Below, one piece after another: positions 46,835-50,124 of a stretch of DNA of 64,000 nt (position 1 is the stretch's first letter; the number at the start of each line of letters is the position of its first letter). A program made the position numbers and the translations under genes. The notes under the pieces were generated by a model. That model did not search any database. It was not told the DNA's origin and worked only from the letters and a program-made list of their open reading frames with translations. Location of the stretch: the sequence record OR352942.1; one strand, written 5' to 3'. The stretch is from Escherichia phage AV112.

Positions 46835-47299
46835 TTATTTAATTTGTTTAGCAGACCAGATACGGTCTTTAATAAGTTTTTGGATATCTTCAACATACTC
46901 AAGGCTATGAGCGTGAGGATTATCTTTGAAGCTATGTGCTCGTGCCAGTTTCTGGCCTTCTGTTTTGATTACTAAAAGCTCTTTAAGAATTGCTTCATAC
47001 TTAGAAATAATTCCTTTGGCGATATTTTTTTCTTGAGCGGCTTTAGGGTCCGCTTTTGGCGCAGGTGCTTTACCTGTAGCTTTCTGGAACAATTCACCTG
47101 ATGCAGCTAGGCTTTTAAAAACTCGGCTAACAGTATTAGCATTAGTAAAACCTTCGGCTTTAAAATCTCTAATAAAACGGAAACGTTCTTCATCAGAGGC
47201 GTCTTTGTAAGAATATTTACCTGCTCTAATTGCTGCAATCGCAGCGGCTTTTACATCTGAACTAGATTGTTCAGTCAAAAATTCAGCGTATGATTTCAT
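46835..47299 (-). CDS. Internal-protein-like protein with capsid-targeting sequence
   Basis: Starts MKSYAEFLTEQ. Confidence 0.5.
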   Translation of the reverse strand: MKSYAEFLTEQSSSDVKAAAIAAIRAGKYSYKDASDEERFRFIRDFKAEGFTNANTVSRVFKSLAASGELFQKATGKAPAPKADPKAAQEKNIAKGIISKYEAILKELLVIKTEGQKLARAHSFKDNPHAHSLEYVEDIQKLIKDRIWSAKQIK

Positions 47300-47343
47300 G
47301 TTGCTTTTCCTAAGTTAATTAACTTATCTATTTATTATTATGC

Positions 47344-47371
47344 AAAAAAGCCCCAACCTTTCGGAAGGGGC
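47344..47371 (-). terminator. Rho-independent terminator closing the tRNA/stable-RNA transcription unit
   Basis: Plus strand reads aaaaaa-GCCCCAACC-tttc-GGAAGGGGC. Confidence 0.6.
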
Positions 47372-47423
47372 TATGCCTTGCGGCAACCTTGTCGGGGTTC
47401 CACCTGCTAAGGCAAGTGTTTGT

Positions 47424-47515
47424 ACGAAACGCCGGGATTCGAACCCGGTTATTAAGCAGTTGACGCTACTCAATATTTTTAAAAGGCCATATCTCGACCA
47501 TATCCGAACGTTCCG
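47424..47515 (-). ncRNA. tRNA-like element or small stable RNA (T4 rnaC/rnaD position)
   Basis: Minus strand has a canonical T-arm CCGGG-TTCGAAT-CCCGG and a 7-bp acceptor-like stem (CGGAACG pairing with CGTTTCG), but the ~60-nt body does not fold as D and anticodon arms. Confidence 0.3.
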
Positions 47516-47683
47516 TCAAAAACGCTACTCGGCTTACGGCAAAGATATTTCCTCGAATCGATAATTCTGTGCGCCGTTTCAGCTGTGATAGTAAAGAACC
47601 AGAACACAGTAAAACTGTGGGAGGAACTATACTCCAGGGAACATCAGTCCGACGACTTACCGGTAGCGACCCGGTTTCTTGTT

Positions 47684-47759
47684 TGGTCGAGACAGTAGGG
47701 GTCGAACCTACGACCTAGGACTTAGAAGGTCCTTGCTCTTCCTTCTGAGCTATGCCTCG
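47684..47759 (-). tRNA. tRNA-Arg (anticodon TCT)
   Basis: Manual cloverleaf: acceptor CGAGGCA/TGTCTCG, D-arm GCTC-AGAAGGAA-GAGC, anticodon loop CTTCTAA, T-arm GTAGG-TTCGACC-CCTAC, encoded CCA. Confidence 0.85.
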
Positions 47760-47763
47760 GATT

Positions 47764-47838
47764 TGGCGGACATGCATGGATTCGAACCATGGACCAATTG
47801 ATTAACAGTCAACTGCTCTACCACTGAGCTACACATCC
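47764..47838 (-). tRNA. tRNA-Asn (anticodon GTT)
   Basis: Manual cloverleaf: acceptor GGATGTG/CATGTCC, anticodon loop CTGTTAA, T-loop TTCGAAT, encoded CCA. Confidence 0.8.
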
Positions 47839-47842
47839 AAAT

Positions 47843-47929
47843 TGGTTGGGAGTGATGGAGTCGAACCACCTGAGTCGCAATGACAATGGATTTACAGTCC
47901 ACACCGCTACCTCTACGGGATAACTCCCC
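47843..47929 (-). tRNA. tRNA-Tyr (anticodon GTA), long variable arm
   Basis: Anticodon arm GTGGA-CTGTAAA-TCCAT, long variable arm, T-arm GGTGG-TTCGACT-CCATC, encoded CCA; the 5' acceptor boundary is uncertain by 1 nt (a 1:72 mismatch if the start is 47929). Confidence 0.6.
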
Positions 47930-47938
47930 AAATTAATT

Positions 47939-48013
47939 TGGTGGCCCTGGGTGGAATTGAACCACCATCTGGCGATTATGAGTCGCTTGCTTGAACCTTC
48001 CAGCTACAGGGCC
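47939..48013 (-). tRNA. tRNA with CAT anticodon (Ile-lysidine type as in T4, or Met)
   Basis: Acceptor GGCCCTG/CAGGGCC, anticodon loop CTCATAA, T-arm GGTGG-TTCAATT-CCACC, encoded CCA. Confidence 0.8.
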
Positions 48014-48014
48014 T

Positions 48015-48090
48015 TGGTGCTGATTGACGGAATTGAACCACCGACCTTCTCATTACAAGTGAGTTGCTCTACCTACTGAGCTAAATCAGC
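48015..48090 (-). tRNA. tRNA-Thr (anticodon TGT)
   Basis: Acceptor GCTGATT/AATCAGC, D-arm GCTC-AGTAGGTA-GAGC, anticodon loop CTTGTAA, encoded CCA. Confidence 0.85.
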
Positions 48091-48095
48091 AAAAC

Positions 48096-48185
48096 TGGCG
48101 GAGGCGATAGGATTTGAACCTATGAGTCGCCGGAGCGACTGCCGGTTTTCAAGACCGGTGCATTAAACCACTCTGCCACGCCTCC
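48096..48185 (-). tRNA. tRNA-Ser (anticodon TGA), type II
   Basis: Acceptor GGAGGCG/CGCCTCC, anticodon arm CCGGT-CTTGAAA-ACCGG, long variable arm, T-loop TTCAAAT, encoded CCA. Confidence 0.85.
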
Positions 48186-48261: not shown

Positions 48262-48271
48262 TAAATTAAAT

Positions 48272-48345
48272 TGGAGCGGATAATGAGAATCGAACTCACA
48301 TCATCAGATTGGAAGTCTGAGGTAATGCCATTATACGATATCCGC
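48272..48345 (-). tRNA. tRNA-Gly (anticodon TCC)
   Basis: Acceptor GCGGATA/TATCCGC, anticodon loop CTTCCAA, T-loop TTCGATT, encoded CCA; matches the recalled T4 tRNA-Gly sequence. Confidence 0.85.
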
Positions 48346-48350
48346 AAATT

Positions 48351-48437
48351 TGGTGCGAGAAGTGGGACTCGAACCCACAAGGAAATCATTCCGCAGCATT
48401 TTAAGTGCTGTGCCTTTACCAATTTGACCATTCTCGC
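48351..48437 (-). tRNA. tRNA-Leu (anticodon TAA), type II
   Basis: Acceptor GCGAGAA/TTCTCGC, anticodon arm CAGCA-CTTAAAA-TGCTG, long variable arm, T-arm GTGGG-TTCGAGT-CCCAC, encoded CCA. Confidence 0.85.
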
Positions 48438-48438
48438 G

Positions 48439-48511
48439 CTGGGAATAAAGGACTCGAACCTTTGCATCCTGGAATCAAAATCCAGTGCCTTACCAACTTG
48501 GCTAATTCCCA
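48439..48511 (-). tRNA. tRNA-Gln (anticodon TTG)
   Basis: Acceptor TGGGAAT/ATTCCCA (U1:A72, typical of Gln), anticodon loop TTTTGAT, T-loop TTCGAGT; CCA is not encoded; only 1 nt separates it from tRNA-Leu. Confidence 0.85.
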
Positions 48512-48608
48512 ATTATTAACAAAGGCTCTCAAGCAAGAACCCTTGATGATAGAGGGTATTAATCAGTGCGATATGAGTTAATAATAACAAATAATTCTTA
48601 AAGCATAT

Positions 48609-48902
48609 TTACCATTTATGATAATACATATTTACGATGCATTCAAGACCCAAAGGATTCTTGAAAATATCATATTCAAGAGGACCTTTTTCCGTTTCAA
48701 TAAAGAAATCAAAGTTAACTGTGTTAAATTTACGGTCTTCCTTTACTAATTTAACTTGAGAAGATGAACGGTCAATGTAAACCTTTTCAACTTCAAAACA
48801 TGTTAAAATGCCATAATCATCAATCAAGGCTTTAGCCGCATCTTGATCATATTTATATCCATTTTCAATGGATGATACTTTCGCATAAAGAATCATTATC
48901 AA
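48609..48902 (-). CDS. Hypothetical protein
   Basis: 97 aa ORF upstream of the tRNA cluster. Confidence 0.45.
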   Translation of the reverse strand: MIMILYAKVSSIENGYKYDQDAAKALIDDYGILTCFEVEKVYIDRSSSQVKLVKEDRKFNTVNFDFFIETEKGPLEYDIFKNPLGLECIVNMYYHKW

Positions 48903-49318
48903 CCTTCATCAACAATAGTATGCGTATTGGCATTTACAATTTGCCACCAATCAAAGCGATTAGAACCATACATCAGTTTGTTTTCATTTTCTTTGATAAT
49001 ATCACGGAGTTCATCTTCAGTGGCGGCTTTCGCGATTAAATCAGCATATCCACCACGAGGATAATAATTATCACCTGCAAAAAGTAAAAAGTTTGGTTTA
49101 ATGTTATTGAACTCTTCAAGAGTAATAACTTTTCCTGACGGTTGAACAATCTCTACATATTTATATCCCAATTTTTGAGCAGCATCTACTGCTTCAAGCA
49201 AAGTATCATGAGCCCATCCAATTTGACAACCTGGCTTTTCAGATGGATTAGCCTGATAATCCGCATACACTTTGTACATTCTATTCACCTTTAGAAATTT
49301 TATCCATAACGATAGCAA
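48899..49318 (-). CDS. Hypothetical protein
   Basis: 139 aa ORF. Confidence 0.45.
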   Translation of the reverse strand: MLSLWIKFLKVNRMYKVYADYQANPSEKPGCQIGWAHDTLLEAVDAAQKLGYKYVEIVQPSGKVITLEEFNNIKPNFLLFAGDNYYPRGGYADLIAKAATEDELRDIIKENENKLMYGSNRFDWWQIVNANTHTIVDEG

Positions 49319-49466
49319 TTAAACCAATTAAAAATGCTACTACAAGTGAAAACACATTTTCTGCTGTAGTTAATAATCCGCATATAAATCCAACAAACAT
49401 TGAAAAACTAAAAGCGGAAGCAGAAATTGCAATAGCAACATTTCGAATTAATTCACAACGTTTCAT
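49281..49466 (-). CDS. Small membrane protein
   Basis: 61 aa, almost entirely hydrophobic. Confidence 0.4.
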   Translation of the reverse strand: MKRCELIRNVAIAISASAFSFSMFVGFICGLLTTAENVFSLVVAFLIGLIAIVMDKISKGE

Positions 49467-49524
49467 TTTATTCTCCTCTGTAGTTGATAGGGTAATAGTA
49501 TCACTACCCCATCTAAAAGTAAAC

Positions 49525-49797
49525 TCATTTTAAATAAATTGCGTATTTTTTATAGCCACCAGGCTCGTGTCGAAGACCCTTATCATTAGCAAAACGCTCA
49601 ATGTTGTTAATTTGATTCTGGTCAAGTTCAGAGATGTCAAACACGAAATAGTTACGTTTGTTACCAACTGTTACATAGTCAGTTAAATCAATACCATATA
49701 GGTAATTGATGTCAGCAATCATAGTCTTGACAGCTTTGCTAATTTTTACTTTTTCGTTAAAAGTAGCTTCATTGATAAATTCTTTAAATGTTTTCAT
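49525..49797 (-). CDS. Internal-protein-like protein with capsid-targeting sequence
   Basis: Starts MKTFKEFINEA. Confidence 0.55.
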   Translation of the reverse strand: MKTFKEFINEATFNEKVKISKAVKTMIADINYLYGIDLTDYVTVGNKRNYFVFDISELDQNQINNIERFANDKGLRHEPGGYKKYAIYLK

Positions 49798-49828
49798 TTT
49801 ATTTTCTTAATTAATTTTGATAGGACCT

Positions 49829-49858
49829 ACTATAACATAGTCCTATCAACATGTAAAC
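49829..49858 (-). promoter_or_regulatory. Sigma70-type early promoter with palindromic -10 region
   Basis: Minus strand reads GTTTAC, an 18-nt spacer, then TATAGT, within TAGGACTA/TAGGTCCTA. Confidence 0.5.
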
Positions 49859-49860
49859 TA

Positions 49861-50124
49861 TTAAATACCTGCTTCGCGCTTAACATAAGCAACATAAGCT
49901 TCGATAGCTTTCTTGCTGGTAATTTTTACCTGACCGCGTCCGTTGCCTTCTTTAGAGTTTTTCTTAACAACTACATTACCATCTTTAACACCCCATACAT
50001 GGACATAAGTACCGATGTTTCGGTCGTAGAACATTGCATGGTCGTTGTTGTAAGAGAATGATTCGTAGTTCTCTGTCAGAGTAGAAGATTGAGATTCAGC
50101 GATAAATTCTTTATACGTTTTCAT
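49861..50124 (-). CDS. Internal protein, ipI position
   Basis: Starts MKTYKEFIAES; adjacent to 57B as in T4. Confidence 0.6.
   Translation of the reverse strand: MKTYKEFIAESQSSTLTENYESFSYNNDHAMFYDRNIGTYVHVWGVKDGNVVVKKNSKEGNGRGQVKITSKKAIEAYVAYVKREAGI

Follow-up and report, generated by a model that had tools for sequence, protein, structure and literature searches.

Three genes with capsid-targeting sequences flank the tRNA cluster of Escherichia phage AV112 and encode candidate injected internal proteins

The 64,000-nucleotide (nt) stretch of the Escherichia phage AV112 genome analysed here (record OR352942.1; hereafter the window) contains, on either side of its tRNA cluster, three small genes, P1, Ip9 (P2) and P3, whose products begin with a capsid-targeting sequence (CTS) of the kind carried by the internal proteins (IPs) of phage T4. 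An initial annotation made from the sequence alone had proposed these genes, and all three open reading frames (ORFs) were recovered at exactly the coordinates it gave, on the minus strand, with ten tRNA genes (47684-48511) lying between P1 and the other two. It had further proposed two palindrome-containing early promoters, and at both sites we found the promoter motifs, the TG and overlapping inverted repeats. The region from 46700 to 50300, in which the minus strand carries every gene, matches Escherichia phage AV113 (OR352943.1; Straboviridae, Tevenvirinae, Mosigvirus, RB69 group) at 100% identity, and in the AV113 annotation P1, Ip9 and P3 are each labelled "hypothetical protein". The features of the locus, in the direction of transcription, are as follows.

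50159..50188, minus strand: early-type promoter 1, TTTACA-17-TACTAT, with TG before the -10 hexamer, upstream of P3
49861-50124, minus strand: P3, CTS protein of 87 amino acids (aa), first cassette of the ipI locus
49829..49858, minus strand: early-type promoter 2, TTTACA-17-TATAGT, with TG before the -10 hexamer, between P3 and Ip9
49525-49797, minus strand: Ip9 (P2), CTS protein of 90 aa, second cassette of the ipI locus
49480..49524, minus strand: third promoter/inverted-repeat copy, TTTACT-17-TACTAT, with arms GATGGGGTA/TACCCTATC, closing the ipI locus
47344..47372, minus strand: terminator hairpin with T-run, copy 1, at the 3' end of rnaC and directly upstream of P1 (RNA fold -18 kcal/mol, z = -3.47)
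47329..47336, minus strand: late-promoter-like octamer AATAAATA, a 7/8 match to the T4 late octamer TATAAATA, placed 30 nt before the start codon of P1
46835-47299, minus strand: P1, CTS protein of 154 aa, downstream of rnaC, with propeptide MKSYAEFLTE
46802..46829, minus strand: terminator hairpin with T-run, copy 2, directly downstream of P1 (RNA fold -16.3 kcal/mol, z = -3.39)

We scanned all ATG-initiated ORFs of at least 40 aa in the six frames of the window with a regular expression for the pattern M-K-T/S-Y/F-x-E-F-I/L-x-E. Exactly seven of 693 ORFs, all on the minus strand, carried a CTS-type N terminus, in agreement with the seven internal-protein-like genes counted by the initial annotation, whereas none of 20 shuffled windows contained a single match, so that the number expected by chance is close to zero. 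Besides P1, Ip9 and P3, the scan returned the following ORFs.

37275-37577, minus strand: CTS ORF encoding an IPII-like protein
37619-38197, minus strand: CTS ORF encoding an IPIII-like protein
38261-38521, minus strand: CTS ORF on the ipII/ipIII side
39000-39281, minus strand: CTS ORF on the ipII/ipIII side

The product of the last of these contains (I/L)-x-E four times in its N-terminal 40 residues (at positions 10, 15, 30 and 40) and, judged from these motifs, may be cut several times by the prohead protease gp21.

The N termini of the three proteins under study are MKSYAEFLTE in P1, MKTFKEFINE in Ip9 and MKTYKEFIAE in P3. Mutagenesis has assigned targeting to the aromatic residue at position 4 and Phe7, and processing to Ile/Leu8 and Glu10 (PMC9026906), and all of these determinants (Y/F4, F7, I/L8 and E10) are present in P1, Ip9 and P3. 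Further, all three fit the profile M1 K2 T/S3 Y/F4 x E6 F7 I/L8 x E10 derived from 60 CTS proteins of 35 related IMG/VR loci and the window; across all 60 sequences, which belong to unrelated cargo families, E10 is invariant and E6 and F7 are nearly so. In T4, the 10-residue CTS alone suffices to package foreign proteins (PMC8442874; PMC3012670); residues 1-10 of IPIII are enough for the packaging of a foreign protein, and the tag is removed before the protein is injected (PMC3012670, PMC8442874, PMC9026906). The machinery that recognises and processes such proteins in T4 is encoded by AV113 as well, and Inh is also annotated in its record.

7243-7884 of the AV113 record: gp21 protease (Peptidase_S77, E = 2.5e-107)
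7918-8730 of the AV113 record: gp22 scaffold (T4_CASP)
6588-6818 of the AV113 record: gp67 (GP67)

These sequence features support the description of the three genes as internal-protein-like with a CTS. The predicted mature proteins are small and basic (P1, Ip9 and P3: 16.0, 9.3 and 8.7 kDa; isoelectric points (pI) 9.7, 8.9 and 9.2) and share with T4 IPI, IPII and IPIII the key residues of the CTS, small size and basic character, and the gp21 and gp22 machinery. By contrast, their mature parts have no detectable similarity to those of T4 IPI*, IPII and IPIII, save for a weak hint between P1 and IPII. BLASTP likewise found no meaningful similarity among the mature parts of P1, Ip9 and P3 or to the other four CTS proteins, the one signal, again a weak one, linking P1 to the IPII-like protein; when the three were compared with T4 IPI and with the IPI of Mosigvirus JK36 (E <= 10), only 3 residues of P1 aligned, with JK36 IPI at E = 8.5. 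Membership of the three in the IPI/IPI* family was rejected because their mature parts lack homology to IPI in these BLASTP comparisons.

We read these results as packaging, trimming and injection of P1, Ip9 and P3 alike, a reading to which we assign a probability of about 75%. The motifs, the loci, the boundaries of the cassettes, their conservation and the genes for protease and scaffold are observed in the sequences; packaging, cleavage, injection and the roles of the cargos are inferred. The CTS would dock each protein on the gp22/gp67/gp68 scaffolding core during prohead assembly, and gp21 would then cut after the Glu of (I/L)-x-E, which is residue 10 in all three, and probably cuts P3 after LTE18 too. 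The mature basic protein would stay among the packaged DNA, be injected with it and act before any phage gene expression. By analogy with IPI, which inhibits GmrSD (PMC3012670, PMC9026906), and with IPIII, which is required on strain ECOR17 and is active there without its CTS, the cargos are probably first-response counter-defence factors. Early promoters do not conflict with incorporation into the prohead, since ipI, ipII and ipIII of T4 are classed as 'early RNA, late protein' (PMC9697503 supplement).

Several results weigh against this reading. A literature search for virion proteomics of P1, Ip9, P3 or close homologues found none, scans against Pfam and NCBIfam assigned the three proteins to no family at a significant score, and sequence searches of PDB returned no relative of any of them. 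P1 has no informative fold match, and the AlphaFold2 model of P3, with a mean predicted local distance difference test score (pLDDT) of 48, was not usable and was left out of the fold search. Before P1, AV113 and two close relatives have AATAAATA rather than the consensus late octamer, and some P1 homologues end the tag in FLMTE rather than in a clean (I/L)-x-E. Finally, NicPhage is restricted by the GmrSD-family enzyme BrxU and encodes a 96.6%-identical copy of P3; because a phage with a near-identical P3 is nevertheless sensitive to BrxU, P3 is probably not a BrxU inhibitor.

P1 occupies a site that is empty in T4, which has no gene between rnaC and e.8. The initial annotation had described all three genes as additional ones outside the classical ipII/ipIII locus; for Ip9 and P3, this description misses that their site is the classical ipI locus of T4. 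Homologues of P1 were found in 511 phage records, comprising Tequatrovirus (including RB27), Mosigvirus and T4-like phages of Klebsiella. Among the records listed that annotate the site, the product is always hypothetical, even where genes of the ipI locus are labelled internal head proteins, and the matching PHROG, phrog_2280, is of unknown function. The ratio of nonsynonymous to synonymous substitution rates (dN/dS) of P1 against RB27 is 0.12, which, like the value for P3 given below, marks a genuine coding sequence. The family is narrow (an exhaustive HMMER search through 1.8 billion representatives found it in only 8 clusters at 50% identity), and its distant members keep a CTS-like N terminus ending in L-x-E, namely MKFKEFLAE, MLKFNEFLAE and MLEYSEFLKE.

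No early-promoter cassette lies upstream of P1, where the rnaC terminator is immediately followed by the T4-type late-promoter octamer; RB27, Klebsiella phage M198 and 6 of 8 IMG/VR loci have a perfect TATAAATA in the same position. The two terminator copies that bracket P1 form a direct repeat, and the RB27 copies agree at 34/35 positions (counted manually on the aligned sequences). T4 has a single terminator copy joined to the downstream flank, an arrangement to be expected if the gene was gained or lost through recombination between the repeats. P1 would be a conserved cassette in its own right that has been inserted behind rnaC and comprises a late promoter, the CTS gene and a terminator present twice. 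In a protein of 94 aa encoded in a public assembly (P0053), the N-terminal part of the tRNA.3-like protein is fused to the last ~32 residues of P1, indicating that some relative lost the tRNA cluster, rnaD/rnaC and most of P1 in one deletion.

It is also conceivable that P1 is packaged but acts as IPII and IPIII do, in association with the DNA or in the assembly of the core, and is not an anti-defence effector. Such a role would explain why P1 is conserved rather than hypervariable, and it is consistent with the distribution of P1 over 511 genomes in three phage groups, with its late rather than early promoter and with its strongly basic mature part (27 K+R, pI 9.7), which resembles IPII and IPIII. 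The AlphaFold2 model of P1, of moderate quality (pLDDT 74), is all-helical, with an N-terminal three-helix domain (~11-70), a Pro/Ala/Lys linker (72-84) and a long C-terminal helical hairpin (85-151); Foldseek found no match to it in PDB at E <= 0.001 and, in BFVD, only its own family and an uncharacterised protein of Serratia phage PS2. In addition, hhalign aligned the N-terminal ~40 residues of P1 with the IPII-like protein (37275-37577) at a probability of 70%. However, the signal is weak and comes in part from the tag, which lies inside the alignment of 41 columns (AAI..GKYSYKDASDESRF in one profile against AAINKKAHSFHDLSDKDRKK in the other). Further, T4 lacks the gene and assembles normally, and the C-terminal half of P1 is swapped in Klebsiella-phage homologues and truncated versions exist, as is typical of accessory genes. 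On balance, we consider a core role for P1 unlikely, albeit one to be taken seriously.

The ipI gene of T4 sits exactly between 57B and trna.4 (T4 annotation), and Ip9 and P3, lying between 57B and tRNA.4, therefore occupy the classical ipI locus and not a new one. T4 and Mosigvirus JK36 have IPI (T4-type in JK36) at this locus, whereas AV113 has no IPI orthologue there and, as judged by gene content, has replaced IPI by Ip9 and P3. Ip9 comprises the propeptide MKTFKEFINE and a cargo extending from about residue 17 to 90. It is 87% identical to RB15 Ip9 (Q38376) over 100% of its length (E = 1.9e-44), with which it shares length (90 aa), CTS and locus, so that it is an allele of RB15 Ip9 with nothing substantive to distinguish it. 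It also matches phrog_7673, 'internal head protein' (E = 7e-54), and its homologues carry the ip9 annotation in VR7 (vB_EcoM_VR7) and VR25; literature searches on the ip7/ip8/ip9 nomenclature were not productive.

P3 is rare and has no name: its homologues, in 35 phage records, are all labelled hypothetical. The protein consists of the propeptide MKTYKEFIAE (residues 1-10), a linker containing a second L-x-E (LTE, residues 16-18) and a cargo of ~69 aa (residues 19-87). This second L-x-E (LSE in some homologues) is conserved in a linker that is otherwise variable. The closest PHROG, phrog_13302 (function unknown), matches residues 16-87 only. By BLASTP, the mature part of P3 resembles neither T4 IPI nor any of the other six CTS proteins, and a word-index search yielded no relatives beyond its own cluster. 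P3 shares with T4 IPI* the locus and the logic of delivery, but not the mature part; its 18-residue propeptide (…SSTLTE) resembles the 19-residue propeptide of IPI (…VSTITE in T4, …VSTLTE in JK36). The DNA of Mosigvirus contains arabinosylated 5-hydroxycytosine and not glucosyl-hydroxymethylcytosine, and the relevant host nucleases therefore probably differ from those relevant to T4 IPI*. Near the C terminus of P3, a perfect 9-nt tandem duplication at 49882-49899 (two copies of AACATAAGC on the plus strand) encodes AYV-AYV, where most homologues have AYVDYV.

Ip9 and P3 are each preceded by an early promoter with an inverted repeat that straddles the -10 hexamer. We folded these repeats as DNA and compared them with dinucleotide shuffles. 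The repeat of promoter 1 (50153-50163/50169-50179; 11 nt, 91% complementary) gave z = -3.76 and that of promoter 2 (49814-49826/49840-49852; 13 nt, 92% complementary) gave z = -4.27; the hairpin of the third copy, which is the predicted promoter of the tRNA.4 homologue (49281-49466), is weaker (z = -1.53). The promoter/inverted-repeat elements align across AV113, JK36 and T4 (upstream of ipI and of tRNA.4) over a span comprising an A-rich region, GTTTAC, the -10 hexamer, CTATCA, the ribosome-binding site (RBS) and ATGAAA. We propose that Ip9 and P3 are tandem cassettes, each behind its own ~80-bp element of early promoter, inverted repeat, RBS and CTS start, and that the repeated elements would act as patches of homology for the gain, loss and swapping of cassettes between phages.

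Comparisons with related phages place the boundaries of homology within these elements. For AV113 and JK36, an identity of 97.7% runs from 57B across the promoter and the initial 22 nt of coding sequence, after which the two diverge until just upstream of tRNA.4. Two IMG/VR loci (L011 and L013), whose 57B proteins are 98-99% identical to that of AV113, have an empty ipI locus, with no IP gene and one palindromic promoter between 57B and tRNA.4 (L011 4430-4600; L013 3188-3360); the DNA homology between L011 and AV113 (98.3%) stops at 50182, inside the -35 hexamer of promoter 1. Across 35 T4-like loci from IMG/VR, the 57B-tRNA.4 interval contains no CTS gene in 3, one in 15, two in 12 and three in 5. 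These genes fall into 13 unrelated cargo families, of which Ip9 is the second most common; the P3 cargo is absent from the interval in all 35. Thus, Ip9 and P3 have the position between 57B and tRNA.4 and the ~70-bp promoter/inverted-repeat flanks on both sides that characterise polymorphic ipI cassettes, whereas P1 does not.

Exchange at the edge of this locus appears to have crossed genera. The segment 49277-49504, containing the tRNA.4 homologue and its promoter, shares 98.2% identity with T4 and 96.9% with RB27, two Tequatrovirus phages, against only 82% with Mosigvirus JK36. With identity to T4 at only ~75% in the adjacent 57B, a recent exchange across the genus boundary is indicated. The palindromic promoters are also found elsewhere in the window: an early promoter with overlapping hairpin and TATCAA start region lies at ~43045-43095 and at ~26491-26541 (minus strand), before the non-CTS genes 42796-43047 (83 aa) and 25956-26483 (175 aa), respectively. 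We therefore rejected the idea that such promoters (these two at ~43092 and ~26538) are specific to IP genes; they are a general feature of the genome.

The cargos of P3 and Ip9 also have relatives without a CTS. A 73-aa protein of Dhakavirus AnYang, ORF188 (2495-2716 of the retrieved locus L005), is 66% identical to P3 over P3 residues 17-82, with dN/dS = 0.11 between the two, and is encoded downstream of a topoisomerase gene behind its own early promoter. Similarly, a 72-aa protein of Kagunavirus UTEC10 (2504-2722 of locus L006), 51% identical to Ip9 over Ip9 residues 19-90, is encoded by a gene that opens an early operon, and weaker tag-less copies of the Ip9 cargo occur in other, unrelated non-T4 phages, siphoviruses included. 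These relatives fit a view of the CTS as a portable loading tag set before early-acting effectors.

The same relatives bear on a second alternative, namely that the shared N terminus is a recombination scar of a mobile promoter/RBS cassette that includes the first 20-30 nt of the coding sequence, the proteins being ordinary early cytoplasmic ones that are not packaged. The DNA homology between cassettes does span the promoter and roughly the initial 22 nt of coding sequence, the P3 and Ip9 cargos are found in other phages as free-standing early genes that lack a CTS, and IPIII is able to act without its own. However, the tag is kept as protein far beyond the reach of DNA homology, as seen from the residues that are invariant or nearly so in the 60 sequences, and ten such residues suffice for packaging in T4 (PMC8442874, PMC9026906). 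P1, in particular, retains the tag in distant Klebsiella-phage homologues as well, and because it has no promoter cassette upstream, homogenisation of cassettes cannot account for its CTS. In P3, moreover, the second L-x-E is conserved exactly at the boundary of tag and cargo despite the variable linker, with homology to the tag-less relative beginning at residue 17. We thus regard a scar as improbable and favour the packaging of all three proteins.

It is scarcely credible that the ORFs or the palindromes of the promoters arose by chance in AT-rich phage DNA: a generic sigma-70 scan did find no excess of sites (14, against 11.5 +/- 2.8 in shuffled sequence) and the third hairpin falls short of significance (z = -1.5), but the seven CTS matches have no counterpart in shuffled windows, the genes are conserved in hundreds of homologues with dN/dS of ~0.12, and promoters 1 and 2 are the best-scoring sites in the region, TG-extended, rightly placed before RBS and ATG, aligned with the T4 ipI promoter and accompanied by hairpins with z of -3.8 and -4.3.

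Polymorphic IP loci of T-even phages were reportedly treated by Repoila, Tetart, Bouet and Krisch (EMBO J, 1994) and by Mullaney and Black (1996). The polymorphism of the ipI locus and its promoter/inverted-repeat flanks were described in 1994 by Repoila et al., as far as the passages citing that work in PMC2839356 and PMC4122927 relate. Ip9 and P3 have in common with these loci the ipI site, tandem variable cargos and flanking copies of an early promoter/inverted repeat; P1 differs from them in its site after rnaC, its late promoter, its terminator repeats, and conservation instead of hypervariability. The elements also resemble the promoter-early stem-loops (PeSLs) of RB49/phi1, PST/T4 and nt-1/KVP40 (PMC2839356, Arbiol et al. 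2010; PMC4122927, Comeau et al. 2014) in combining an early promoter with a stem-loop, in marking insertion/deletion boundaries within hyperplastic regions (here, the junctions with L011 and JK36) and in flanking small accessory genes as repeats. Against the PST/T4 PeSL consensus TTTACW-N17-TAYWAT, one of promoters 1 (TACTAT) and 2 (TATAGT) matches and the other is off at one position. Unlike in PeSLs, the stem-loop here straddles the -10 hexamer and has no T-run, and the element reaches the RBS and the first codons of the CTS; the RB49/phi1 PeSL, for its part, has a near-consensus sigma-70 promoter, a G(n)-loop-C(n) stem and minicircle excision. Arbiol et al. regarded the IP-associated elements of T-even phages as analogues, not homologues, of the RB49 PeSLs (PMC2839356).

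Thus, the ipI locus, its promoter/palindrome architecture (for thirty years) and the name Ip9 are known already, and our results add nothing conceptual to the 1994-2014 picture of IP cassette shuffling. New are the rare, unnamed P3 cargo, the widespread and never annotated late-promoter CTS gene P1, and the tag-less relatives of the cargos. Injected internal proteins are the earliest-acting counter-defences of a phage and help set its host range, a property that counts in therapeutic T4-like phages, among them those of the AV collection, isolated on E. coli producing extended-spectrum beta-lactamase (ESBL); P1, Ip9 and P3 are three concrete candidates for host-range determinants. A simple rule for annotation also follows, namely a CTS N terminus in a phage that encodes gp21 and gp22. 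Two broader ideas can be put forward tentatively, at somewhat less than even odds: that P1 defines a third, unrecognised internal-protein locus of the Tevenvirinae, present in more than 500 genomes but not in T4, and, more generally, that the CTS has been grafted onto cargos that elsewhere are ordinary, first-expressed early genes. The absence of P1 from T4 may be why the locus went unnoticed; if the grafting of the CTS onto early-gene cargos is true, IP cargo families mark first-response counter-defence genes across unrelated phage groups.

The genes surrounding P1, Ip9 and P3, in transcriptional order, are as follows.

50891-51625, minus strand: gene 1, deoxynucleoside monophosphate (dNMP) kinase, at the head of the order
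50656-50886, minus strand: 57A, after gene 1
50201-50656, minus strand: 57B, after 57A
49281-49466, minus strand: tRNA.4 homologue, after Ip9 and followed by tRNA.3-like and tRNA.2-like genes
48899-49318, minus strand: tRNA.3-like protein gene, after the tRNA.4 homologue
48511-47684, minus strand: ten tRNA genes, between the two ipI-locus genes and P1, followed by the rnaD/rnaC region
46208-46711, minus strand: gene for a 167-aa protein, after P1

The stretch at ~47340-47680 is the counterpart of T4 rnaC and rnaD (annotated in RB27). An Rfam search of this stretch gave no match at the gathering threshold, the tRNAs being the sole Rfam matches, and the stable phage RNAs rnaC and rnaD appear to have no Rfam family. 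The tRNA cluster specifies Arg, Asn, Tyr, Met, Thr, Ser, Pro, Gly, Leu and Gln, compared with eight tRNAs in T4; relative to T4, it lacks tRNA-Ile and the homing endonuclease gene segB and has the tRNAs for Asn, Tyr and Met there instead.

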